A DNA stretch of 64,000 bases from Planctomycetota bacterium (GTDB taxonomy: Bacteria > Planctomycetota > Brocadiia > SM23-32): the NCBI GenBank assembly GCA_021161675.1, contig JAGHAF010000096.1, positions 6,201 to 70,200 of the forward strand, in the 5' to 3' direction. This document shows positions 3,998 to 61,827 of the stretch, piece by piece. Position 1 is the first letter of the stretch. Each line of letters begins with the position of its first letter. The translations under genes were made by a program, and so were the position numbers. Below the pieces are notes generated by a model that was not told the DNA's origin, ran no database searches, and saw nothing but the letters and a program-made list of their open reading frames with translations.

Positions 3998-5041
3998 ATG
4001 ACCGATACCGTTCGCATAGCAGTGCTGGGACTCGTGCATGACCACATCTGGGGCGCCATGCCCCACTTTGCCGAAGTGGAGGGAGTGGAACTGGTCGGAG
4101 CGGCTGATCCCAACCAGCCGCTCCTGGAGAAGTTCCAGGCGCAAAGCGGCTGCGACAAGGTGTATCGCGACTACGAGGAATTGCTGGATCGCGAACAGCT
4201 CGACGCCGTGCTGGCCTACGGAACAAATCGCAGCACGGCGGAGCTCGTCGAGATGGCGGCCGAGCGCGGCCTGCACGTCATGACCGAGAAACCGATGGCC
4301 AGCAGCCTGGAAGTGGCCGATCGCATGCTCGTCGCCGCCCGCAAGGCGGGCGTTATCCTGATGGTCAACTGGCCCATCGCCTGGTCGCCGTCCATCCAGC
4401 ACGCATACCGGCTCGTGCGGGAAGGGCGGATCGGCCGGCCCTGGCAGCTCAAATGGCGCGGCGGACACGGCGGCCCACGGGAACTCGGCTGTAGTAAGTA
4501 TTTCTGCGACTGGCTGTTCGACCCGCAGGAGAACGGCGCGGGCGCCCTGTTCGACTACCTGGGATACGGGGCCAGCCTGGCGCGCCTCTTCATCGGCCTG
4601 CCCAATCGGGTCACCGCAATCGCCGGCCGACTGGTCAAAGACTACATCCCCGTGGATGACAACGCGATCGTGGCGCTCGAATACGCCCACGCGAACGCCG
4701 TGATCGAATGCACCTGGACGGAGGCAGTGCCGGATCATCCGCCGCACGATCTTATCGTGTACGGCACGGAGGGCGTCCTCGTCGCCGGAGGGGACAACGT
4801 CATTACCCGCCGCAAGGGCGATGATGACGACCAGGTTCATCAGCCCCCGGCGCTGGAAGCTCCCCGCAGGAACAGCCTCCAGTACTTCGTCCACTGTATC
4901 CGCGCCGGAGAGCCCGTCGAGGGCGTTTGCAGCCCGGAGAACAGCCTGGACGCCCAGCAGGTCATGGACGCGGCCCGCCTCAGCGTGCTGACCGGCAGCC
5001 ACATTTCACTGCCGCTGGTGGACCATCTTTATCCCATGTGA
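3998..5041 (+). CDS. Gfo/Idh/MocA family NAD(P)-dependent oxidoreductase
   Basis: The N-terminal VRIAVLGLVHDHIWGA Rossmann segment and ...EKPMA motif are typical of the family. Confidence 0.8.
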   Translation: MTDTVRIAVLGLVHDHIWGAMPHFAEVEGVELVGAADPNQPLLEKFQAQSGCDKVYRDYEELLDREQLDAVLAYGTNRSTAELVEMAAERGLHVMTEKPMASSLEVADRMLVAARKAGVILMVNWPIAWSPSIQHAYRLVREGRIGRPWQLKWRGGHGGPRELGCSKYFCDWLFDPQENGAGALFDYLGYGASLARLFIGLPNRVTAIAGRLVKDYIPVDDNAIVALEYAHANAVIECTWTEAVPDHPPHDLIVYGTEGVLVAGGDNVITRRKGDDDDQVHQPPALEAPRRNSLQYFVHCIRAGEPVEGVCSPENSLDAQQVMDAARLSVLTGSHISLPLVDHLYPM

Positions 5042-20089: not shown

Positions 20090-22426
20090 TCATACTCTCA
20101 GCCCGCCGACCTCCCGATAGACAACTGCGCCGTCCGCGATGGGCCCGGCCAGGGCATCCTTGACCTCGCCCTTTGCAGTGAAGTAGACGACCTGCCAGCC
20201 CTGCTCACATATCCGCATCAGGACATCCAGCTGCTCCCTAAGTCTTACCGGGTCAGCCTTTACGAACGGGTCGTCCATGATGAAAAAGCCCTTGCCGCCC
20301 TGTAGAAGTTTCTCGCCGAGGGCAAGACGGATGGAAAAATAGAGCTGGTCCCACGCCCCGCCGGATAGCTTGCGAGCGGCCAGCGCCTCGCCGTCACGCC
20401 TCTTGACCTGGACGGCGCCCGTCCCCTGATCAAATAACACCTCGCCGTAGCGCCCGCCCGTTATAGTCGAGAAGTGTTCGGAAACTGGGCTGTCGGCGCC
20501 GAAGAGCATGGAGACCTTCTCCTTCTCCTCCTCGCCGATGGAGTCCATCAATTCAATAACCTGCAGCGCATCCTGTGCCTTCTCTTCCGTTCTGGCGACA
20601 AAGCTCTCGAGCCTCCGTCGAATCGCTTCAAGGTCTACCGTGCTCTCGCAAAGCAGGTTTTCCCCCTCCAGGTACGGCCCCAGCACCTCGCTGGCACGCC
20701 GCTCTATTTCTTTGAACTCTCTGCTGAAGTCGGACATCCGCTGCTCTATTTCTTCGAGAGCCTTTTTCAGTTTCTCCTCCTTGGACTCCCGTTCGCGCAC
20801 GGCGGTTTCGCTGTATTCGGTCTGCCGGGCGGCGTCCTGGAATTGCTCCAACTCGCTCACCCGGGCGTTCCAGAAGGTGATTCTCTCCTGCAAGTCTGCC
20901 CCTTCCGTCCCGAAAATATTATCGAGCACGCTTTGCTGGGTTTGAACCTGTCCCTCCAGGCTCTCCTTCTCCCGGAGTTTCTGCAGGTAGCCCTCGAGGG
21001 AATCCTCCTTCGACTTCCGCATAAGCTCGTCCAGCTTGTCGCGGGCGCCTTTTCTTTCCTGGCGCAGGCGCGGAATTATCTCGTCCCGGAGCTCTTCAAC
21101 CTTGTCCTGTGTGCCCTGGGCCTTCACGCTTGCATTGTTGCGACGATCGTCCGCCCCACTGTATTCCTCATCGAAATTGCGGACGGCGCCGAGAAGGGCT
21201 CCCAGCTCGCCCCCCTCCACGGCGATGGCGGACATACCGTTCCTGAGGGCCTCAAATGCGCTTTGCAGCCCGGAGCGGTCTTTCGCCAGGCGAAGTCCGT
21301 ACCAGCCGGCAGCCAGAGAACAGGGGAGAAAGACTATCCCCGTCAAGTAGAAAAGAGAGGAATGACTGAGAATGAGCCCGATCATGCTCAGCGCCAGCAG
21401 GGCGGCGCAAACCAGGCCGAATCGCCGCACAGAACGGCTCAGGGGCACCCTGCCGGCCACCCGTTCGGCCTTCTCCCTGTAGTCACTCAACTGTCCTCTA
21501 AGCCGTTCATCCAGGACTTTTTTCCGCTCCGAGAGCTTGCTGAACTCGCGCTCCGCCTCCTGAAGCTCCTGTCTTTGCCTTTCGAGCAGGTCTTTGAGCT
21601 CGTCCAGTTCAGAACTCCGCCGCCCTTCGTCTTCCCGGCATCGCACAATCTCCTCCTGGAGGCGCCGCCACTGTTCCCCGTCCTCTTGATTGAAGATTTC
21701 CAGCCTTCTTAGCTTCTCGCGGGCGTCTTTGAGCGTGCTAAGCGCTGCGCGCCCTTTTTCATACGTCTCGCGGCGCCGCGCATCCGCCAGGCTCTCAAGT
21801 TCGTGTTCTATCCTCGCAATCAGGCGCCTCTGCGCGACAGCTTTCTCTTCCAAATCTTCATAGCCTTCCTCTTCCGCTCTTGCCGCTATCTGATGTACAT
21901 CGGCGAGCGCTTTTTTTGCGTGCCCCATCCTATCCCTCATCTTGTGATGCTCAGACGTGTTGCTGAGCAGCCCGGTCTCCGTGACCTCCCCCAGTTTCAG
22001 CAAGGCCCCCCGGATGCGGTTCAGGTCATCCGTTCTGAGTCCCGTGAGCTTGTCCGTCACAGTGACGTAGAACTCGCTTTCGCCCGCAATTGACAGATCG
22101 CTGTCGCGTATGACGAAGATGTTCCTCAGCTCCGCCCCGGACAAATCCGTCAAATCACATAGAGAGCCTTTCTCGGGCAGCTTTAGTTCGCCACCCTCAT
22201 CGTCACGAATGATCACGTAGCCTTCCGGCGCTTCGTCCACACGGTCGAGACGCTCAAAATCCCGGCTCCTGGCCTTTTGTCCCAGCAGCAGCTTCACCAA
22301 AGCGTCTATCGTCAGCGTTTTGCCGTCCTCGTTGTGCCCGAAAAGCAGCGTGAAGTCCCCCAGGCTGACAACGCCTGTTTCCCTCAGCGGGCCGTAACGC
22401 GTCATGGCGAATTCGGTCACTCTCAC
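20090..22426 (-). CDS. SbcC/Rad50-like SMC ATPase with mid-coiled-coil transmembrane hairpin (SbcE/YhaN-like)
   Basis: N-terminal Walker A LFGHNEDGKT. A roughly 500-aa E/R/K/L-rich coiled coil is interrupted by two TM helices (FGLVCAALLALSMIGLILS and LTGIVFLPCSLAAGWYGL). C-terminal ABC signature LSGGAWDQ and Walker B FFIMDDPF. Confidence 0.8.
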   Translation of the reverse strand: MRVTEFAMTRYGPLRETGVVSLGDFTLLFGHNEDGKTLTIDALVKLLLGQKARSRDFERLDRVDEAPEGYVIIRDDEGGELKLPEKGSLCDLTDLSGAELRNIFVIRDSDLSIAGESEFYVTVTDKLTGLRTDDLNRIRGALLKLGEVTETGLLSNTSEHHKMRDRMGHAKKALADVHQIAARAEEEGYEDLEEKAVAQRRLIARIEHELESLADARRRETYEKGRAALSTLKDAREKLRRLEIFNQEDGEQWRRLQEEIVRCREDEGRRSSELDELKDLLERQRQELQEAEREFSKLSERKKVLDERLRGQLSDYREKAERVAGRVPLSRSVRRFGLVCAALLALSMIGLILSHSSLFYLTGIVFLPCSLAAGWYGLRLAKDRSGLQSAFEALRNGMSAIAVEGGELGALLGAVRNFDEEYSGADDRRNNASVKAQGTQDKVEELRDEIIPRLRQERKGARDKLDELMRKSKEDSLEGYLQKLREKESLEGQVQTQQSVLDNIFGTEGADLQERITFWNARVSELEQFQDAARQTEYSETAVRERESKEEKLKKALEEIEQRMSDFSREFKEIERRASEVLGPYLEGENLLCESTVDLEAIRRRLESFVARTEEKAQDALQVIELMDSIGEEEKEKVSMLFGADSPVSEHFSTITGGRYGEVLFDQGTGAVQVKRRDGEALAARKLSGGAWDQLYFSIRLALGEKLLQGGKGFFIMDDPFVKADPVRLREQLDVLMRICEQGWQVVYFTAKGEVKDALAGPIADGAVVYREVGGLRV

Positions 22427-23484
22427 GGTGCGGCCTCCATCATGGCGCGGATGGCAAGCTCCCGCATTCTCACCCTCCTGGCCTCATCCTGCACGGTCTC
22501 GTCCAGCCGCCGGGCAAAACTCTTGAACAGCTCGTCTTCCATGACTCGGCCGATGTCGCTGAACTCGAGGACAGGATCAACTGCCCTCGAGCCGGCTAAC
22601 TGCCTGATGCGGCCGGCGAGTTCGGTCTCCGTCATGCCCATCTTTTGGCTGTTCACAAAGCCGGAGACCGTCAGAAGTATCCGGGCGCGAGGGTGGACTT
22701 CGCTGAGGCGCTCACGGATCATGGCCAGAGGGCCGGCGTCACGAAACGGGTCAAGCCTTACGGCGATATCCTCGAAATGGCTGGTGTCCAGCGCGTGCGG
22801 CTGCGGAGGCCCTCCCACCTCGAAGAGATTGACCTTTCTCTGCCCGGTCTCCCTTCGCGTCACCGACACCGGCGAACCGGGATAGACAAAATAGCCGCCG
22901 TTTCCCAGGCGCCGGACGTCAAACCTCGAGTGAAAATGCCCGGCCAGCACGTAATTGACGCTGAGTTCCTCAAAATAGGCCAGTCTGGCCGGCATGTACC
23001 TCTTGGGGCCCTCCTCGCCGAAGTCACTTCTGGAGAAGAAGGTGTCCAGCAGCTCCCCGTGGAAAAGCAGGATGTTGGTTCGGTCGGCCTCCATCTCGTC
23101 CGCGAGCGCGTGGAGCGTTTCCAGCACGCCCTCCGTTCCCACCGGCCGAAACGGGATGCCGAATATGCTCACGTCCCCCAGCCTCACGGGACTGTGGACA
23201 TCGTCCAGTATTGCCACGTCCTCGCCGAAATACATGCCGCCCGCGTAGGAATCCGCATCGTGGTTGCCGGGGAGAATCACCACTTTCATGCCGGTTCCGG
23301 AGAAAAGCGGCCTGACATAGCCCTTCAGGTCCTCGGCATTGATCCCCCGGTCGAACAGGTCACCGCTTATCACCAGCGCTTTGACTTTCTCCTCCGCGCC
23401 GAGCGCCACCACGGCGCGAAGGGCCTCCCACCTCTCATCATCATGTTGTCGCAAATGCACGTCTGCGGTGTGGAGTATTCTCAT
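22423..23484 (-). CDS. Mre11/SbcD-family metallophosphoesterase nuclease (SbcF/YhaO-like)
   Basis: Calcineurin-like motifs DVHL, GDLFD, GNHD, HGE, GHFH. Its stop overlaps the ATG of the downstream SMC-like gene (ATGA), indicating one operon. Confidence 0.8.
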   Translation of the reverse strand: MRILHTADVHLRQHDDERWEALRAVVALGAEEKVKALVISGDLFDRGINAEDLKGYVRPLFSGTGMKVVILPGNHDADSYAGGMYFGEDVAILDDVHSPVRLGDVSIFGIPFRPVGTEGVLETLHALADEMEADRTNILLFHGELLDTFFSRSDFGEEGPKRYMPARLAYFEELSVNYVLAGHFHSRFDVRRLGNGGYFVYPGSPVSVTRRETGQRKVNLFEVGGPPQPHALDTSHFEDIAVRLDPFRDAGPLAMIRERLSEVHPRARILLTVSGFVNSQKMGMTETELAGRIRQLAGSRAVDPVLEFSDIGRVMEDELFKSFARRLDETVQDEARRVRMRELAIRAMMEAAP

Positions 23485-28861: not shown

Positions 28862-30211
28862 CTACTTTTCTTTTTCCAGTTTTTTCTTCTGCCGCCGCAG
28901 TTCCACCTTGCCCTGTTTGATCAACTGCACGATGCGGCGGCGCGCCGGGCAGACGTAAGCGCAGCAGCCGCATTCCTTGCACTCCAGGATATCCAACCGG
29001 CGGGCGGCCTCCCAATCGCCGGCTTCGCAGGTGATGCTCAGCTCAGCCGGCAGAAGCCCCAGCGGACATGCCTCCACGCAGCGCCCGCACCGGATGCAAG
29101 CCCGGGGCAAAGGCGCCTCCACGTCCCGGCGAACGATAATGGCATTGTTGCCTTTCACGAGTGGCAAGTCCACCGTCCCCTGCGCAATGCCCATCATCGG
29201 GCCGCCGAGGATGACCTGGTTCGCCCCGGGACGCACGCCCTGTCGCTCCAGAAGGTCTGCGACGTTCGTGCCGATCAACTCGATGAAGTTGCCTGCGTTC
29301 TCGATGCCGTCGCCCGTTATGGTCACGGCCCTCTCGATCAGCGGGCGGCGCAGGCGGATGGCGTCCCGGATCGCCAGCGTGGTGGCCACGTTATGCACGA
29401 GGCATGCAACGTCGGCGGGCAGTCCGCCTCCGCTGGGCACCTCTCGGCCGGTGATGGCGGTGATAAGCTGCTGTTCGGCGCCCTGCGGATAGCGAACGCT
29501 CAGCGGCGCCACGCGGATGTTCGGCTCGCCGCGCAGCGCCTGCTCAAAGGCTTCGATCGCGTCCGGCTTGTTGCGTTCGATGGCGACCCAGCCGGTCTCG
29601 CAGTCCACCACGCGCATTATGAGCTTGAGGCCGTCAATGATCTGATCGGTGCGCTCCAGCATCAGGCGGTGGTCCACGGTGACGTAGGGCTCGCACTCGG
29701 CGCCGTTGATAATAACGTCGCTGATTGGGCTGCCGGCCGGAGGGCTGAGCTTGACGTGGCTGGGGAAGGTGGCCCCGCCCAGCCCGACGACGCCGCACTC
29801 ATGGACCAGCGAGCGCATCTGGGCTGCGTCCATGGATTCGACTCGCTGCGGTTGATTCAGCCCCTCGGCCCAGGCGCCCTCGCCGTCGCTCTCGATGATG
29901 ACGGCCTCCACGAGAGCGCCGGTGACGCTGAAGATACGGGGTTCGACGGCCTTGACCACGCCGCTGAAGGGCGCGTGGACGTTGGCGCTTATGAAGCCCC
30001 GGGCCTCTCCCACGAGCTGGCCCTTCTTCACCTTGTCACCGCGCTGTACCACCGGCGTGGCCGACGCGCCGATGTGCTGCGCCATAAGGACGGCCACCTG
30101 TGCGGGCGGCGCCATGCGCGCCAGGGGCTTGCCGCTGGTGCGGGCCTTGAAATCGTCCTTTGGATGGACGCCGCCTCGGGGGAATCTTTTCGTGTCTGTC
30201 TGCGGAGTCAT
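28862..30211 (-). CDS. rnfC: Rnf electron transport complex subunit C (NADH-binding, 2x[4Fe-4S])
   Basis: GGATFPSHVKL NADH-binding motif, two CxxCxxCxxxCP ferredoxin motifs (CIRCGRCVEACP, CKECGCCAYVCP), and RnfC N-domain. Confidence 0.85.
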   Translation of the reverse strand: MTPQTDTKRFPRGGVHPKDDFKARTSGKPLARMAPPAQVAVLMAQHIGASATPVVQRGDKVKKGQLVGEARGFISANVHAPFSGVVKAVEPRIFSVTGALVEAVIIESDGEGAWAEGLNQPQRVESMDAAQMRSLVHECGVVGLGGATFPSHVKLSPPAGSPISDVIINGAECEPYVTVDHRLMLERTDQIIDGLKLIMRVVDCETGWVAIERNKPDAIEAFEQALRGEPNIRVAPLSVRYPQGAEQQLITAITGREVPSGGGLPADVACLVHNVATTLAIRDAIRLRRPLIERAVTITGDGIENAGNFIELIGTNVADLLERQGVRPGANQVILGGPMMGIAQGTVDLPLVKGNNAIIVRRDVEAPLPRACIRCGRCVEACPLGLLPAELSITCEAGDWEAARRLDILECKECGCCAYVCPARRRIVQLIKQGKVELRRQKKKLEKEK

Positions 30212-31404
30212 TTATCCTCTCTCTTGCTTCTCAGCGCGCGTCCGATCTGCCGGACGGCCTGGCGGAGGCGCTGCTCGTTCTCCACGAGGGCCATGCGCAC
30301 GAAGCGGTCGCCCCCCTCGCCGAAGGCGGCGCCGGGCGCGACCGCCACCCCGGCTTCCTCCAGCAGCATGAAGGCGAAATCCACCGATCCCATCTCCAGG
30401 AAAGGCTCCGGCAGCGGCGCCCAGACGAACATGGCGCCTTTCGGTTTTTCGACCGGCCAGCCGATGCGCCCTAGCCCTTCGCACAGCACGTCGCGGCGCG
30501 ACTCGTAAACGGCGGCCTGCCGGTGGGCATCGTCCATGCAGTCCCGCAGGGCAATGATACTGGCAATCTGGATCGGCATAAAGAGCCCGTAGTCGTAGTA
30601 GCCCTTTATCCGCGCCAGGCCGGAGACCACCTCCTCGTTCCCAACGCAGAAGCCGATCCGCCAGCCGGCCATGTTGAAGCTCTTGGACATGGAGGTGAAC
30701 TCCACCCCCACTTCCTTCGCCCCCTCGGCCTGGAGGAAGCTGGGCGCCCGGTAGCCGTCGTAGGTGATCTGGCAGTAGGCGAAGTCATGGACGATGGGAA
30801 TCTGCCGCTCCCGGGCGAACTGGACCGCCCGCTCGTAGAACTCCGGCTCGACCGTCAGCGTGGTCGGGTTATGGGGGTAGTTCAGGAGAGCGAACTTCGG
30901 TTTCTTCTCCATCCCGGCCACCATTTCATCCATGCGGTCGAACAGCTCCGGCCGGTTCGACAGGGGCAGTGTAACGGCCTGCCCGCCCGCCAGGGCTATG
31001 CTGTGCAGGTGCGGCGGGAAGGCCGGCGTGGGCACGATAGCCGTCTGGCCCGGCTCCACCATGACCAGGGACAGGTGCGAGAGGCCCTCTTTGCTCCCGA
31101 TGGTGCAGACGACTTCCCGCTCCGGGTCAATCCGGACGCCGTACTGGCGATCGTACCAGCGGGCGACCTCCCGCTTCAGGCTGATCAGGCCGTCGGCGCT
31201 TACGCTGTAGCCGTGGGTGCGGGGGTCCTCGACTTTCTCGATCAGTTTGTCAATGATACGCCGGGGCGTCGGATCGTTCGGATTGCCCATGCCAAGGTCA
31301 ATAATATCTTCCCCGGCGCGGCGCCGCGAGAGCTTGGCCGCGTTCAGCCGGCCAAAGACATACTCCGGCAGCTCTCCCATCCGAGCGGCAAATCTGATCC
31401 TCAT
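30208..31404 (-). CDS. class I/II PLP-dependent aminotransferase (aspartate/alanine/LL-DAP-type)
   Basis: Pyridoxal-lysine motif SMSKSFNMAGWRIG. YPHNPTT. 398 aa. The stop overlaps the rnfC ATG (ATGA). Confidence 0.85.
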   Translation of the reverse strand: MRIRFAARMGELPEYVFGRLNAAKLSRRRAGEDIIDLGMGNPNDPTPRRIIDKLIEKVEDPRTHGYSVSADGLISLKREVARWYDRQYGVRIDPEREVVCTIGSKEGLSHLSLVMVEPGQTAIVPTPAFPPHLHSIALAGGQAVTLPLSNRPELFDRMDEMVAGMEKKPKFALLNYPHNPTTLTVEPEFYERAVQFARERQIPIVHDFAYCQITYDGYRAPSFLQAEGAKEVGVEFTSMSKSFNMAGWRIGFCVGNEEVVSGLARIKGYYDYGLFMPIQIASIIALRDCMDDAHRQAAVYESRRDVLCEGLGRIGWPVEKPKGAMFVWAPLPEPFLEMGSVDFAFMLLEEAGVAVAPGAAFGEGGDRFVRMALVENEQRLRQAVRQIGRALRSKREDK

Positions 31405-36311: not shown

Positions 36312-37501
36312 TGGGCCTCCTGATAGAGCACGAGACATGCACCCTCTGCGGGCTGTGCGTGGAGAAGTGCCCGTACGGCGCGCTTCAACAGGTCGGCGGA
36401 CGCATCCGCGTAACCGAGCAGTGCACCCTCTGCGGCGCTTGCGTGGAAGCATGTCCCGCCGCCGCCCTGTCCATCGAAGAGGGGGCCGCCGCAGCGCCCG
36501 AGAGCGGCGCATGGCGGGGCGTCTGGGTCTACGGGGAACATGACGACGGGCGCTTCCACCCCGTCGTATTCGAATTGATTGGAAAAGGAGCGCAGCTTGC
36601 CCGCGCGCTCAACTGCCCCCTGTCCGTTGCCACGGCCGGCGTGGCGTCCGGCCAGATGGTCTCTGAACTGACAGGGCTGCCCGTGCAGAGCCTCTACGTT
36701 GCCGAAAACAAGGCGCTCGGCCCTTACCGCGACGCTCCTCACGCGCGCGCCCTGGCGACGCTTGTGCAGCGGCATCGCCCCGAGGCGCTGCTCGCCGGCG
36801 CCACCGCGCGCGGCCGCTCCCTTATGCCGCGCGTTGCGGTGCTGTGCCGCACCGGGCTGACCGCCGACTGCACCGGGCTCGATATAGACGCCCAGACGGG
36901 CAACCTGCTGCAAACCCGGCCTGCCTTCGGCGGTAATATCATGGCCACCATCGAGACGCGGCGCCACCGCCCCCAGATGGCCACCGTGCGCCCCAGGGTC
37001 ATGACGCCCCCCTCCAGGCGGGGGACGGCTGTCCCGGCCTTGCGGCGCGTGCCCGTGCCCGAACCGACGAGCGATCATCTGGTCCAGGTAATCTCCCGCG
37101 CAGTCCGGGAGGAAGAGCGCGTCCACCTGACGGAGGCGGACGTGCTGATTGCCGGCGGGCGTGGTCTGGGCGGGGCGGCTGGCTTCGAGCTGCTTCGGGA
37201 GCTGGCGGAGACCCTCGGCGGAGAGATCGGCGCGAGCCGCGCCGCCGTAGACGCCGGCTGGATCCCCTACGCCCACCAGGTGGGCCAGACGGGCAAGACC
37301 GTCCAGCCTGACCTCTACGTGGCCGTCGGCATCTCAGGGGCCCTGCAGCACCGAGCCGGCATGCAGTCCTCGGGGACTATCGTAGCCGTCAACACCGATC
37401 CCAACGCGCCCATCTTCCAGGTTGCCGACTACGGCGTGGTCGGCGACTACCGGGCCGTGCTGCCACAACTCATTCGGCGACTCCGTCAGGAGGAAAGGTG
37501 A
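36311..37501 (+). CDS. etfA: electron transfer flavoprotein alpha subunit with N-terminal 2x[4Fe-4S] ferredoxin domain (LctC/CarE-like)
   Basis: N-terminus [12 protein letters not shown] + [12 protein letters not shown]. EtfA FAD domain [15 protein letters not shown]. This architecture matches bifurcating EtfA subunits such as LctC of Acetobacterium. Confidence 0.85.
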
Positions 37502-47206: not shown

Positions 47207-47581
47207 TCAGGCGCCGTCGCCCAGCGGCTTCACTTCACGCCAGCAGGCGCGTTCGGCCTCGCCCCACAGCAGCTCCAAATCATAGAGCTCCCGCGCCTGC
47301 GGGCTAAAAAGATGCACGACCGCGTCGCCAAGGTCAATCAGAACCCATCCTGCTTCCGCCTCCCCCTCGACACCGAGCGGGAGCTGGCCCAGCCCCTTGA
47401 GGCGCTGCAGTATGTCCTCGGCGATCGCGTTGATCTGCCTCTTGTTGCGCCCCGTGGCGATTACGAAGTAATCGGTGAAGAAAGCGAGCGGCCCAACGTT
47501 GAGCACAACGATCTGTTCCGCCTTGCGTTCGTCGGCCACGTGGGCGCAAGTGCACGCAACGGCCTCTGCGCTGAAGCTCAC
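47207..47581 (-). CDS. rsfS: ribosome silencing factor RsfS (Iojap family)
   Basis: KAEQIVVLNVGPLAFFTDYFVIATGRNKRQINAIAEDI...DLGDAVVHLF is the RsfS core. The start is uncertain (the ORF extends to 47635; a probable GTG lies near 47581). Confidence 0.7.
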   Translation of the reverse strand: MSFSAEAVACTCAHVADERKAEQIVVLNVGPLAFFTDYFVIATGRNKRQINAIAEDILQRLKGLGQLPLGVEGEAEAGWVLIDLGDAVVHLFSPQARELYDLELLWGEAERACWREVKPLGDGA

Positions 47582-47623: not shown

Positions 47624-47728
47624 GACAAACGGCAAATATCCAACATCGAGCGCTCAATGTCCAATGTCGAAGGGCAAAGGGAGCGGAATTCGGCAACATT
47701 GGACACTGAGAATGGAGAGTTCGACATT
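47624..47728. repeat. cluster of four 16-20-nt quasi-palindromic repeat units built on ACATTG(G)/ATATTG tandems plus a CGAGCGCTC palindrome
   Basis: Units at 47624-47640, 47643-47662 (reverse complement of CTTCGACATTGGACATTGAG), 47684-47700 and 47711-47728. Overall they form an imperfect inverted repeat of about 105 nt. The same 20-mer and palindrome recur at 60965-61052. Confidence 0.55.
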
Positions 47729-47742
47729 CGATATTGAGTTCT

Positions 47743-48546
47743 TCAGACGTCTTCCATGCCGAGTTCTTCACGGATGGTGGCGGTGCCTTTGAGGCCGGGT
47801 TTCAGATTCAGCGCCTTGGCGAAGATCGTGCGCGCGGCGTCTTCTTCTCCCTCTCGGCAGTGGACTTCCGCGATTTTCTTCAGGATGAAGGCCTTCTCGC
47901 TCTTGTCCAGGCCGAACCCCAGGATGCGCTGGTAACAGGCGATCTCCTCCTGAGCGTCCCTGGCTTCCCGGGGCAACTTACGGCTGTAGAGCTTCTTGAT
48001 GCGCGCCTCGACCTCTTCGAAGAAATATCGCTCCCGGGGGGGGTCCTTCTCCCTCTCGTAGAGTTCTTCATAGAGTTCGGCCGCCTCTCGGAACCGCTCG
48101 ACGCGCTCCATCTGTTCGGCCAGCAGGAAGATACAATCCAGGTAATCCTTGACGTCCAGATAGTCCGCGAGGTTGAAATCTTTGTTCTGCCTCAGTTCGT
48201 CATACACCCGCAGCGCGCTCTGGCCATCCGCGCCCAGCAAGTCAGATAATATCTGCTCAGCATATTCCTGGAAGGTGCGCACCTCGTTGCGGCGCACCTC
48301 CTCCTCCACCGCCGGGCTGGACTGCATCAACACATCATAGCGAGCGCGTTCGCGCTCGTTGCTCAGCACGCGATAGGCGGCGATGATTTCCTTGAGCTTC
48401 TTGGCGAACCGCACGTCCTGATCCCGGTGCGCATCGGGATGATATTTCTTCGCCAGCCTGCGGAACGCCTTCTTGATCTCCGGCTGGGACGCATCGCGAT
48501 TGATGTCGAGAACGTCATAGTACGTCATTTTTAGTGATTCGGTCAT
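47743..48546 (-). CDS. J-domain (DnaJ-like) protein with TPR-like helical repeats
   Basis: MTYYDVLDINRDASQPEIKKAFRRLAKKYHPD is a canonical J-domain HPD motif. The C-terminus is a helical repeat region. Confidence 0.75.
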   Translation of the reverse strand: MTESLKMTYYDVLDINRDASQPEIKKAFRRLAKKYHPDAHRDQDVRFAKKLKEIIAAYRVLSNERERARYDVLMQSSPAVEEEVRRNEVRTFQEYAEQILSDLLGADGQSALRVYDELRQNKDFNLADYLDVKDYLDCIFLLAEQMERVERFREAAELYEELYEREKDPPRERYFFEEVEARIKKLYSRKLPREARDAQEEIACYQRILGFGLDKSEKAFILKKIAEVHCREGEEDAARTIFAKALNLKPGLKGTATIREELGMEDV

Positions 48547-48899
48547 GACTGGCTGTTCGGCTTTCCATCTGATGAAGAAACTGGTTTTGAGGGGCTGTAA
48601 GCCATCAGAAGGGCGTCCCCCCAAGGCAATCCACGCTTCCACCTTCCCAAACTACGTTAGTGGCCCGCAGCGGCAAAAAGTTCACAAATTCGTACCCCTG
48701 CCTTTTCTCTTCGAACCTGGCCAACCCACCGGGCTAACCCCCGCCCCTTTGGCCACAATATCCGCGCCCATACCCTCCGCTGACCCATCCGCCTTCCCGT
48801 CCCTGCGACATGTCTGGCCGATATGCCTAAGAACCTACACGGAAGAGCAGCGCCTCGACGGGCTCCCCCGACACTTCTTCACTCATACCATCATACCAA

Positions 48900-60266: not shown

Positions 60267-60911
60267 TCATCCCGGCAATTCTCTTTTCAGGCGGGCGACC
60301 GCCCGATCCGCCAGCCGGGTCGGTTCCGGCAGGCGATACTTCACGCAGCAACGCAGAACCAACTCCTCGGCGGTCTCGAAGTCCGACAGGTGCCCGGGAC
60401 TGACGAAGAGGGGCCGAACGCCCCTGCGGCTTCGCAGGACAGTGCCGATCTGCTCCTCGCCGTCGTAGAGCGGCGCCGAATCGCCCTTCGCGGGGCCGAG
60501 CTCCTCGTGGGTGCCGATCAGGCGGCTCTTGGCGCAGCCCACCGACGGCAGTCCCAGCCACAGGCCGATGTGACTGGCCAGCCCCAGCCGGCGCGGATGC
60601 GCGTAGCCCTGACCGTCAAAGATCACCACGTCCGGCCTGGCGCTGAGGCGGCGAAACGCCTCGACCAGGCCCGGCCCCTCGCGGAAGGTCAACAGGCCCG
60701 GCACGTAAGGGAAAGAACACTTCACGTGCAGGCCCACCTCCTCGACGATCTTCATCTGCGGGAAGCGCAGCAGCGCCACGCTCACAAAGGCGAGGCCGCG
60801 GCGGCGGCTGAACGCCAGGTCCGCCCCGGCCACAAGCTCGATTCTCTCCGGCAAAGGCTCGATGCGCACGCGCCCCGCAAGCGCCTCCTGAATCCGGCGC
60901 GCCTCCGCCAT
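60267..60911 (-). CDS. nfi: endonuclease V
   Basis: VAGADLAF...FPYVPGLLTFREGP...VVIFDGQGYAHPRRLGLASHIGL is the EndoV catalytic core. The start is placed at MAEARRIQEALAG. The ORF extends to 60947. Confidence 0.85.
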   Translation of the reverse strand: MAEARRIQEALAGRVRIEPLPERIELVAGADLAFSRRRGLAFVSVALLRFPQMKIVEEVGLHVKCSFPYVPGLLTFREGPGLVEAFRRLSARPDVVIFDGQGYAHPRRLGLASHIGLWLGLPSVGCAKSRLIGTHEELGPAKGDSAPLYDGEEQIGTVLRSRRGVRPLFVSPGHLSDFETAEELVLRCCVKYRLPEPTRLADRAVARLKRELPG

Positions 60912-60964
60912 CGTGCAATCCCAGCTATGTAGTTCGGGCACTTCCATGCAATCTGTCCAGAAGC

Positions 60965-61052
60965 GATGTCAAATGTCGGACACTCAACTCCCAACGTTCA
61001 ACGAGCGCTCGTAGCATACTTCGACATTGGACATTGAGCATTCGATATTGGG
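60965..61052. repeat. second copy-cluster of the ACATTGG/ATATTG repeat family with palindrome CGAGCGCTCG
   Basis: The exact 20-mer CTTCGACATTGGACATTGAG lies at 61019-61038, CATTCGATATTGGG at 61039-61052, CCAACGTTCAACGAGCGCTCG at 60992-61011, and a degenerate inverted unit at 60965-60987. It sits about 55 nt upstream of the nfi start. Confidence 0.55.
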
Positions 61053-61075
61053 TATTCCCGTTCCCCCTCCTCCCT

Positions 61076-61750
61076 TTATCTCACCCCCAGGTAGCGCGCC
61101 GCCCGGCGGATGTCGTCCGCGTTGGCCGCCATGTAGACGCGATCGCCGGCCTCGATAGTCACCGGCCCCCGGGGGATGATGAACTGAGCGTCCCTCGGCC
61201 GGAATATGCCTGCAATGACGCAGTCCTTGGGGAAACCGGAGGAATCGGCGATCTGGGCCACCGTGCGCCCGGCCGCCTTCGATTCCTCGGGCACCCGGAC
61301 GAATACGATGCTCGCCTGCCCCTCCCCCAACGCGGTCAGCTCTTGCATGGCAGGCTCCTCGATCTCCCAGGTGAACTGGTTGATGTAGAGTTCCACGATG
61401 TTCAACACCCGGTCGGCCCCCGCCAGCTTGTACGCATCTGCGTAACGCAGGTCGCGCATCCGCACTATCACCCTGGGCGCCTCCATGTGCTTGGCCAGCA
61501 CGGTGAAGCAGAGGTTGTCGCTGTCGCGGCGCATGGCCGCCACGGCACAGTCGGCGCGGTCCAGCTCGGCCTCTTCCAGCGTGTTGATGTCGGTGGCCGA
61601 GCCGTGAATGGTCGTCACACCGAGCTGCGAATAGATCCGTTCGCAGACGTCCCGATCCTTGTCTACGACAACGACGTCGTGCTTGCCGGCCGTCAGCTTC
61701 ATGGTCAGACCCCACCCCACCAGCCCGACACCTGCGATAACTATTCTCAT
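61076..61750 (-). CDS. trkA: K+ uptake system NAD-binding peripheral subunit TrkA/KtrA
   Basis: MRIVIAGVGLVGWGL GxGxxG Rossmann motif (RCK_N) plus an RCK_C domain. The start is placed at MRIVIAG. Confidence 0.8.
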   Translation of the reverse strand: MRIVIAGVGLVGWGLTMKLTAGKHDVVVVDKDRDVCERIYSQLGVTTIHGSATDINTLEEAELDRADCAVAAMRRDSDNLCFTVLAKHMEAPRVIVRMRDLRYADAYKLAGADRVLNIVELYINQFTWEIEEPAMQELTALGEGQASIVFVRVPEESKAAGRTVAQIADSSGFPKDCVIAGIFRPRDAQFIIPRGPVTIEAGDRVYMAANADDIRRAARYLGVR

Positions 61751-61797: not shown

Positions 61798-61827
61798 CTT
61801 CGTAGCCCGCCGTAGCGGGCTACGAAG
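61798..61827 (-). promoter_or_regulatory. 13-bp perfect GC-rich hairpin (cttcgtagcccgc-cgta-gcgggctacgaag) in the trkH-trkA intercistronic spacer
   Basis: Perfect inverted repeat 68 nt after the trkH stop and about 48 nt before the trkA ATG. Possible intra-operon attenuator/processing or stability element. Confidence 0.45.

Follow-up and report, generated by a model that had tools for sequence, protein, structure and literature searches.

A stretch of 64,000 nucleotides from a Planctomycetota bacterium (contig JAGHAF010000096.1 of assembly GCA_021161675.1, positions 6,201 to 70,200; the whole stretch is called the window here) contains two related inverted repeats built from 7-nt units, or heptads. 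Locus 1 (47634-47738) occupies a short spacer between two minus-strand genes, one encoding a DnaJ-domain/TPR protein and the other rsfS, and locus 2 (60964-61056) occupies the short spacer between the minus-strand genes trkA and nfi (endonuclease V). These are two gene-less members of a heptad inverted-repeat family, and in other genomes the same arms, or heptamer arms specific to the lineage, bracket genes for four-helix-bundle proteins of the PF05635 family, in the manner of those intervening sequences (IVSs) of 23S rRNA that carry an open reading frame (ORF). The reading favored here, to which we assign a probability of about 0.6, is that both loci are ORF-less miniature copies of a selfish, heptad-armed inverted-repeat element whose full-length form carries a PF05635 gene.

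Two heptad elements in the window

A sequence-only reading of this DNA had described four related units upstream of rsfS, two in each orientation, and all four are present at locus 1, which had been placed about 10 nt too low. In the minus-strand transcript the 3' arm of this locus reads CC TTCGACA TTGGACA TTGAGCG CTCGATG TTGGATA TTT, a complete five-heptad module that scores 40.5 bits (E 9e-11; 47673-47635, minus strand) against an nhmmer profile of the family, and the two arms, taken over 37 nt, are 70% complementary. The minus (gene) strand folds at -37.4 kcal/mol with z = -3.9 and 0 of 200 shuffles as good, and the plus strand at -32.8 kcal/mol with z = -1.95. The 5' arm starts 4 nt past the stop codon of the DnaJ/TPR gene, and 52 nt separate the element from the GTG of rsfS.

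At locus 2 it is the 5' arm of the minus-strand transcript that holds the better module, AC TTCGACA TTGGACA TTGAGCA TTCGATA TTGGGTA TT (47.2 bits, E 7.6e-13; 61018-61056, plus strand). In the predicted fold this arm pairs with a degenerate 3' arm, partly through G.U pairs, to give a stem of about 30 bp with mismatches, at -30.8 kcal/mol for the minus strand versus -24.7 for the plus strand. The element begins 20 nt past the trkA stop codon and lies 17 nt from the nfi ATG at 60947 (an alternative nfi start lies at 60911). Both elements do stand upstream of the rsfS and nfi starts, as had been claimed, at 52 and 17 nt, and they also stand just past the stop codons of the genes before them.

The recurrence of a 20-mer and a palindrome 13 kb from locus 1, which had also been pointed out from the letters, was borne out at locus 2. 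The 20-mer CTTCGACATTGGACATTGAG is exact at 47653-47672 (minus strand) and 61019-61038 (plus strand) and is found with 3 mismatches at 47719-47738; by chance 0.01 matches would be expected, and none of 100 shuffled sequences had as many as 3. The palindrome CGAGCGCTC recurs at locus 2, and the palindrome GAGCGCTC has two occurrences in the 64 kb, each within one of the loci. Tandem Repeats Finder (TRF) reported a period of 7 at 47655-47668, 47720-47735 and 61023-61051. The tetranucleotide GTAG occurs within the window elements only in the locus 2 loop. No extra copy of the element was found in the 64-kb window or in 9.4 kb more of the same scaffold, and the window contains no rRNA. Rfam gave no match at the gathering threshold in the whole window and none at E <= 10 on the locus, and on 18 related loci it gave nothing but tRNAs and one signal recognition particle (SRP) RNA.

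The exact 20-mer was found at 9 loci in a metagenome scan, one of them being locus 1 of the window, carried by a contig that breaks off within the element. Other samples also yield contigs of the same organism that stop inside it or have Ns there, which is typical of repeated sequence; hairpins of this kind break metagenome assemblies. A third copy from the window's organism may lie at 2309-2333 of metagenome locus L062 (Ga0180301, 63% GC), where a stop codon is followed by half a module, in which the 20-mer is exact, and by a degenerate partner arm. The parts of the two elements and their host genes are collected in Table 1.

Table 1. Positions of the element parts and host genes in the window, and of inverted heptamer-array pairs on a Nostoc plasmid
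Locus	Feature	Positions	Strand	Remarks
1	Unit AAATATCCAACATCGAG	47634-47650		
1	Palindrome CGAGCGCTC	47647-47655		within 3' arm
1	Unit CTCAATGTCCAATGTCGAAG	47653-47672		
1	Unit CAACATTGGACACTGAG	47694-47710		
1	Unit TCGACATTCGATATTGAG	47721-47738		
1	5' arm of transcript hairpin	47694..47738	-	heptad blocks CTCAATATCGAATGTCGA and CTCAGTGTCCAATGTTG, 10-nt bulge between them
1	Loop (center)	47673..47693	-	21 nt
1	3' arm	47634..47672	-	complete five-heptad module
1	Upstream host gene, DnaJ-domain/TPR protein	47743..48642	-	real product 267 aa; stop 47743-47745
1	Downstream host gene rsfS	47207..47581	-	likely start GTG 47581; PF02410 in syntenic relatives
2	5' arm in minus-strand transcript	61018..61056	+	best-conserved five-heptad module
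2	Loop	61002..61017	-	palindrome CGAGCGCTCG inside, 61002-61011
2	Degenerate 3' arm	60964..61001	-	TTGAACG TTGGGAG TTGAGTG TCCGACA TTTGACA TCG
2	Upstream host gene trkA	61076..61750	-	224 aa; stop 61076-61078
2	Downstream host gene nfi (endonuclease V)	60267..60947	-	
L080	Inverted array pairs	21259-21334, 21433-21653, 22447-22574, 29767-29957, 30286-30352, 36691-36852		

A five-heptad module and its genomic contexts

A genome scan with the 19-mer TTCGACATTSGAYATTGAG returned 52 loci, which were then arranged in a 7-nt register. A fixed module, (A/C)C TTCGACA TTSGAYA TTGAGNN TTSRAYR TTSGAYA TT(T), was present in 33 of 55 matches, window included, with the match forming its first half, and its last two heptads and both of its boundaries were recovered without being forced by the search pattern. 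The profile made from module copies scores E 1e-9 to 1e-14; it replaced a degenerate heptad scorer that was blind to orientation because TTCGAA is self-complementary. In the usual arrangement two modules face apart, with unit 1 beside a loop of 15-50 nt, and the pair can form a hairpin. One Kiritimatiellia subfamily (L013, L033, L036, L038 and L047, the last at 4273-4382) has the opposite arrangement, with modules that face each other across a conserved linker, CCGACGCCGTGCAGGCTCC..GGCAGAA, and one such facing pair comes directly after a four-helix-bundle gene. Elements also recur in full, with their loops, at separate loci (L024/L025 and L004/L030 are examples), and they have A-rich sequence on their 5' flank and T-rich sequence on their 3' flank.

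Copies of the module were found on 14 contigs of a Kiritimatiellia metagenome-assembled genome (MAG), 6 of a MAG from the Planctomycetes-Verrucomicrobia-Chlamydiae (PVC) group, 5 of a Fulvivirgaceae isolate and 4 of Chryseosolibacter, and also in Niastella, Gemmatimonadota, Calditrichia, Latescibacterota, Lentisphaerae and Desulfobacterales. Archaea, Streptomyces and Ruminococcus gave a few lone matches, which have no units 4-5 and look fortuitous. The 19-mer had 0 matches in viral contigs, and a plasmid blastn search with locus 2 gave no match. The better arm of locus 2 is identical at 37 of 43 positions to a Kiritimatiellia copy, at 34 of 43 to the other copy in the window and at 33 of 43 to a Bacteroidota copy; the nearest homologs of the window proteins are from Brocadiaceae, Brocadiia or Planctomycetota.

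The sequence-only reading had suggested a mobile family akin to repetitive extragenic palindromic (REP) sequences, bacterial interspersed mosaic elements (BIMEs) or MITEs (miniature inverted-repeat transposable elements). Much of that suggestion stands, in that these are dispersed, multi-copy intergenic inverted repeats within which assemblies break and which are absent from the corresponding spacers of relatives. The comparison with classical REP sequences fails, since the window module consists of heptads repeated in one direction and lacks both an internal palindrome and a conserved tag of the GTAG or CGTC type, and the partner gene encodes a four-helix-bundle protein rather than a transposase or a REP-associated tyrosine transposase (RAYT). 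Classical REP sequences, with BIMEs and the REP doublets called REPINs, are extragenic palindromes spread by a RAYT, a Y1 enzyme, and act as mRNA 3' stabilizers or as gyrase/IHF sites. The heptad family has several of their features as described in PMC3733652: it is extragenic and biased to gene 3' ends, with avoidance of divergent spacers; it forms both head-to-head and tail-to-tail dimers, which can fold into long hairpins and have a conserved linker in the Kiritimatiellia subfamily; and it occurs in mosaics with GTAG-type palindromes in a Kiritimatiellia MAG. However, its unit is non-palindromic, a five-heptad direct array in place of a palindrome of 20-40 nt, and a REP family is as a rule confined to one species or genus, unlike this module, which several phyla share. 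Furthermore, the 350 ORFs that surround the copies (about 0.4 Mb) included no RAYT, and the sole recurrent neighbor of the module in several phyla is PF05635. The window element is not a REP/BIME member, and a classical REP origin for the family is very unlikely.

Several composite structures were seen in the same searches. Single modules are flanked on both sides by GC-rich, GTAG-tagged palindromes of the CACGGGATACCCGTG type in L020, L029, L044 and L063, and these mosaics of CACGGGATACCCGTG-type sequences and heptads (Kiritimatiellia MAG CB27_Tmax.59 and related metagenome contigs) are BIME-like and made of two unrelated repeat families. In the PVC MAG B1Sed10_207 (L005, L019, L023, L032, L041) the module is part of a roughly 130-nt composite in which tandem GTGTAAGAGTAC 12-mers stand upstream of it. 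This composite terminates in GGACATTCGCTTTTAAC, an ending also seen in a Calditrichia MAG behind a module that lies downstream of a tRNA (L045, 1049-1090).

By simple ORF calls the spacers that hold the module are about 9 convergent, about 20 co-directional and 1 divergent, and most of the 20 flanking ORFs checked against Pfam are real genes. Many copies lie 0-20 nt past a stop codon, and others lie 9 nt past an SRP RNA gene (L060) or directly after tRNA genes (L010, L045). This pattern of contexts argues against operators or promoters as the main role, and the promoter-proximal operator role that the sequence-only reading had preferred is not supported, the more so as relatives run rsfS and nfi without the element. 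An account of that kind would have an operator array, or a portable sigma-70 promoter of the form TSGACA-N17-GATATT, driving rsfS and nfi. Ribbon-helix-helix proteins such as omega do bind heptad arrays. The module consensus and the hexamers at both loci agree with sigma-70 at 9 of 12 positions, the spacer being 17 nt (0.1-0.2 such sites are expected by chance per 700 nt), and the site in the locus 1 3' arm, TGGACA-N17-GATATT, is directed at rsfS from near the position that TTGAAA-N17-TATAAT has in relatives. The good module of locus 2, however, carries its promoter-like half directed into the trkA 3' end and away from nfi, and across the family the best module is directed into a gene 3' end in about 25 of 33 cases. 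The module is the same in Bacteroidota, whose main promoters are unlike the sigma-70 type, and any two heptads three units apart yield this hexamer pair automatically. A promoter or operator function as the explanation of the repeats is thus quite improbable.

The positions directly after stop codons, SRP RNA and tRNAs could instead point to a bidirectional intrinsic terminator or other 3'-end hairpin with no mobile origin, and the A-rich and T-rich flanks, together with the GC-rich terminator hairpin that relatives have in the same spacer, would fit that account. A terminator scan was nevertheless empty at both loci, neither of which has a GC-rich stem with a T-run, and the downstream genes start 17-52 nt past the hairpin and would need read-through or a promoter. 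Sequence conservation across phyla is also unexpected for terminators, and we consider this explanation highly improbable. CsrA, Hfq, Fur, sigma-54, DnaA, parS, dif and DNA-uptake sequences were dropped as candidates for misfits of sequence and spacing.

The element was compared with the orthologous spacers of relatives in eight stretches (about 140 kb; flanking proteins 70-78% identical; two of the stretches are nearly identical copies of one locus), none of which contains the module. It is present in the window and absent from the dnaJ-rsfS and trkA-nfi intervals of these relatives. The dnaJ-rsfS spacer of the relatives has a GC-rich hairpin and a TTGAAA-N17-TATAAT promoter instead, and two or three additional genes separate their trkA from nfi, which places locus 2 of the window at a synteny break. 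Horizontal spread explains this patchy distribution better than vertical descent.

The surroundings of locus 2 differ from those in relatives in other ways. The additional genes of the trkA-nfi interval (L071, 10676-14634; L072; L073) encode GH31, sulfatase and, once, URO-D proteins on the opposite strand; they are missing from the window at 60948-61075, with the heptad element exactly at the junction, and a deletion or rearrangement may have happened there, with the repeat as its mark or its mediator. The trkH-trkA spacer is 144 nt long in the window versus 24-28 nt in the same three relatives, and it contains a perfect palindrome with a 13-bp stem, CTTCGTAGCCCGC-CGTA-GCGGGCTACGAAG (61798-61827), which has GTAG and a REP-like look; no second copy of it turned up with a search pattern of the wrong loop length. 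Next to trkH, about 2.5 kb from locus 2, lies rnc, the gene for RNase III (L069, 9185-9949, just past the right end of the window), and because this adjacency is kept in relatives it probably has no connection with the element.

Heptamer arrays around four-helix-bundle genes

An all-versus-all comparison of the 350 ORFs in the fetched loci gave one module-adjacent cluster with members from three phyla, and this cluster proved to be PF05635 (23S rRNA intervening-sequence protein, S23p), also described as TIGR02436 (four helix bundle protein). In the Bacteroidota locus L011 the ORF is separated by 63 nt from the arm before it and by 46 nt from the arm after it, and these two arms agree at 40 of 43 positions. 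The PF05635 gene of L023 (PVC) stands between heptads of the AATGACG type and their complement, and that of L047 (Kiritimatiellia) between a module and a module pair. Further loci were picked by the protein alone and comprised five plasmid genes and three metagenomic genes. All five plasmid genes, from Bernardetia, Nostoc, Anabaena, Planktothrix and Pseudanabaena, are flanked by heptamer arrays, which on the Nostoc plasmid are AATTCAA x4 and TTGAATT x4 and form perfect inverted repeats of 31 nt. Heptads of the window type, AATATCC and AATGTCG among them, stand on both sides of the three metagenomic genes (one in a Phycisphaerales MAG).

Heptamer arrays were accordingly present on the flanks of 11 of 11 PF05635 genes examined, and the family members in other genomes that have the ORF between their arms are L011, L023, L047, L083, L092 and L097. 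The flank-to-flank inverted-repeat scores of the 11 were far above those of 165 control ORFs (Mann-Whitney p = 4e-7), with 8 of them beyond the 95th percentile of the controls, and the only controls that scored as high were insertion sequence (IS) transposase genes. The protein family is large, with 6613 relatives at E <= 1e-15 against one query. Its genes are co-oriented with their neighbors in nearly all loci. In 10 of 11 tightly flanked co-directional hairpins, both window loci included, the sense strand has a more stable fold than the antisense strand, and the arm beside the upstream gene is the better profile match in 10 of 11 such loci. Co-orientation and the sense-strand fold are together consistent with an action in the transcript.

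Heptamer arrays could also arise in place by polymerase slippage and template switching, as simple-sequence hairpins comparable to the cyanobacterial short tandemly repeated repetitive (STRR) sequences or to Xanthomonas GGGAATC, neither mobile nor tied to a protein, and the four-helix-bundle genes would then merely insert or persist among them. As cited in PMC4679880, Mrazek (2007) reported heptamers as the commonest long simple-sequence repeat in prokaryotes and slippage was proposed. Consistent with such an origin, the unit number of the Coxiella array varies by strain, and one Nostoc plasmid (N. flagelliforme pNFSY05, L080; Table 1) has at least six further inverted array pairs, each with its own heptamer (AACAGTT, GCAATTC, AAGGGGA, CAATTCG, GGGTAAA, GGGGCAG) and none enclosing an ORF. 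Slippage does not readily account for a fixed order of five units with TTGAG in the middle one and defined ends in several phyla, nor for the duplication of whole elements, loops included, at separate loci. Between Bacteroidota and Kiritimatiellia, proteins with the same flanking module have 50% identity, versus 42% over a shorter stretch for L011 and L023, whose flanking heptads differ, and this fits a gene and its arms moving together. Furthermore, of the 18 period-7 arrays in a 50-kb stretch of the Planktothrix plasmid, 9 are no more than 161 nt from the four-helix-bundle gene. An origin by slippage alone is on balance unlikely.

The neighborhoods of the heptamer-flanked genes include two recurrent settings. 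The gene lies between cas2 and cas1 in L076 (Anabaena cylindrica pANACY.01) and directly upstream of cas1 in L078 (Pseudanabaena pPg_04). The cassette adjoins ketoacyl-ACP synthase genes in L074 (Bernardetia), L083 (metagenomic bacterium) and L092 (Phycisphaerales MAG), which could be a preferred site or a coincidence.

Known systems, proposed history and significance

The closest precedent for a cassette of this kind is provided by the ORF-bearing IVSs of 23S rRNA in Leptospira, Coxiella burnetii and Brucella (PMC4990558). That of C. burnetii is a selfish element of 428 nt with an S23p ORF and a 28-bp terminal stem that is cut by RNase III, and it has 3-4 tandem heptamers (GACAGAT) beside the ORF, in a number that varies among strains (PMC4990558). 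Shared with the window element are the terminal inverted repeats that form a long stem around a loop, the PF05635 gene that the loop holds in full-length relatives, and the tandem heptamers in the arms, GACAGAT x3-4 in Coxiella and the five-heptad module in the window. ORF-bearing IVSs are likewise regarded as selfish and are transcribed within the host transcript, as the window element presumably is. The window copies differ in lying in spacers between protein genes, rather than in helix 25 or 45 of 23S rRNA, in being ORF-less with loops of 16-21 nt, and in their heptad sequence. The ORF-less IVSs of Salmonella and others, hairpins of about 90-110 nt that are removed by RNase III, resemble the window copies as short non-coding hairpins inside a transcript with a sporadic distribution among relatives, and differ in host site.

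Intergenic tandem arrays of 7-nt units are also known as STRR sequences, as GGGGA(C/T)T in Anabaena, as GGGAATC in Xanthomonas (PMC4692102) and as TAACTGA in Beggiatoaceae (PMC4679880). These arrays are homogeneous and variable in length, whereas the window module has five non-identical units in fixed order, and they have been interpreted as G-quadruplex or translational signals, with no link to PF05635 drawn in those papers. There are nonetheless points of contact. In Xanthomonas most GGGAATC arrays are convergent inverted pairs, X. campestris having 84 plus-strand arrays, and there are 70 cases of two arrays so paired (PMC4692102), and a GGGAATC x4 array overlaps the annotated start of XCC0516 (PMC4692102 supplement), a PF05635 protein whose family is unmentioned in the paper. 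Similarly, a Planktothrix four-helix-bundle gene is flanked by AATCCCC, the complement of GGGGATT. In the open literature searched, subscription journals aside, the link between four-helix-bundle genes and heptamer arrays is nowhere generalized and gene-less derivatives outside rRNA are not described; a search with the sequence strings of the element returned no relevant paper.

Like MITEs, the window copies are short and non-coding, with terminal inverted repeats, many dispersed copies in the family and a longer gene-bearing relative; they differ in that no target-site duplication was seen and that the longer element has PF05635 as its gene, which is no known transposase. The window element fits the IVS definition only in part, because it has no ORF and does not lie in rRNA. 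It is best filed as an IVS-like, MITE-like selfish hairpin outside rRNA.

The history that we propose begins with the arrival of a cassette by horizontal spread, after which the ORF would have been lost. The remaining element would be transcribed within the host transcripts, from the dnaJ-like gene into rsfS at locus 1 and from trkH-trkA into nfi at locus 2, and its arms would pair into an imperfect stem of 30-35 bp. By analogy with IVS stems in 23S rRNA, this stem might be cut by RNase III, or would at least block 3' exonucleases, and cutting or blocking would separate the upstream from the downstream cistron.

Several observations weigh against descent from such a selfish cassette. This genome has 2 copies in 73 kb, or perhaps 3 with L062, and no PF05635 gene in the same 73 kb (the window plus 9.4 kb), so that we infer the cassette descent of the window copies from other genomes. 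Neither a transposase nor a consistent target-site duplication was seen in aligned copies, for which no close empty site was at hand for comparison. The hairpin that the sequence-only reading had expected of the whole region is well supported at locus 1; at locus 2, with its degenerate second arm, the minus-strand fold is no better than that of shuffles (z = -0.7). Some family members are lone modules with no partner arm and no significant fold, and since the single modules within the 130-nt composite of the PVC MAG show no significant fold on either strand, the hairpin is not universal in the family. The strand signal is only suggestive, because counts of G.U pairs in the profile register were 13 versus 13, with no strand bias; this count of G.U (versus A.C) weakens the one made by hand and conflicts in part with the asymmetry of folding energies. 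The cyanobacterial plasmids hold many ORF-less pairs of heptamer arrays of other sequences, and arrays could therefore arise by slippage, with genes simply landing there. Finally, the precedent for RNase III comes from stems in 23S rRNA, and its extension to sites outside rRNA rests on analogy.

A more specific version of the selfish-cassette reading would give the four-helix-bundle protein a direct part. The Xanthomonas S23p structure is a homopentamer, as cited in PMC4990558, and PDB entries 2RLD and 2GSC (XCC0516, PF05635) have five chains each. Avd, an accessory protein of diversity-generating retroelements (DGRs), is a pentameric, positively charged barrel related to PF05635 (PMC6182149, PMC10053308). 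A homopentameric four-helix-bundle protein might recognize the heptads with one unit per subunit, which would give modules of five units, and the two would form a self-propagating system whose footprints are the gene-less hairpins. The cyanobacterial and Coxiella arrays have 3-10 units, and for this reason direct recognition of heptads by the protein is a tentative and rather doubtful proposal.

The findings touch on three puzzles that have stood apart: the origin, mobility and purpose of 23S IVSs and S23p, the function of stand-alone PF05635/TIGR02436 proteins, and the abundance of heptanucleotide repeats. Inverted heptamer arrays surround these genes in Bacteroidota, PVC, Cyanobacteria and Proteobacteria, and gene-less hairpins are scattered in spacers, which suggests that IVSs, four-helix-bundle proteins and heptanucleotide repeats are one phenomenon. 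If the protein and the heptads do form a system, it would be a main source of the heptanucleotide-repeat excess of bacteria, including STRR, GGGAATC, TAACTGA and the module shared by PVC and the Fibrobacteres-Chlorobi-Bacteroidetes (FCB) group, and the 23S rRNA intervening sequences would likewise have arisen from it. The hairpins probably cut or insulate operon transcripts, and they would thereby matter for genome annotation and operon prediction.

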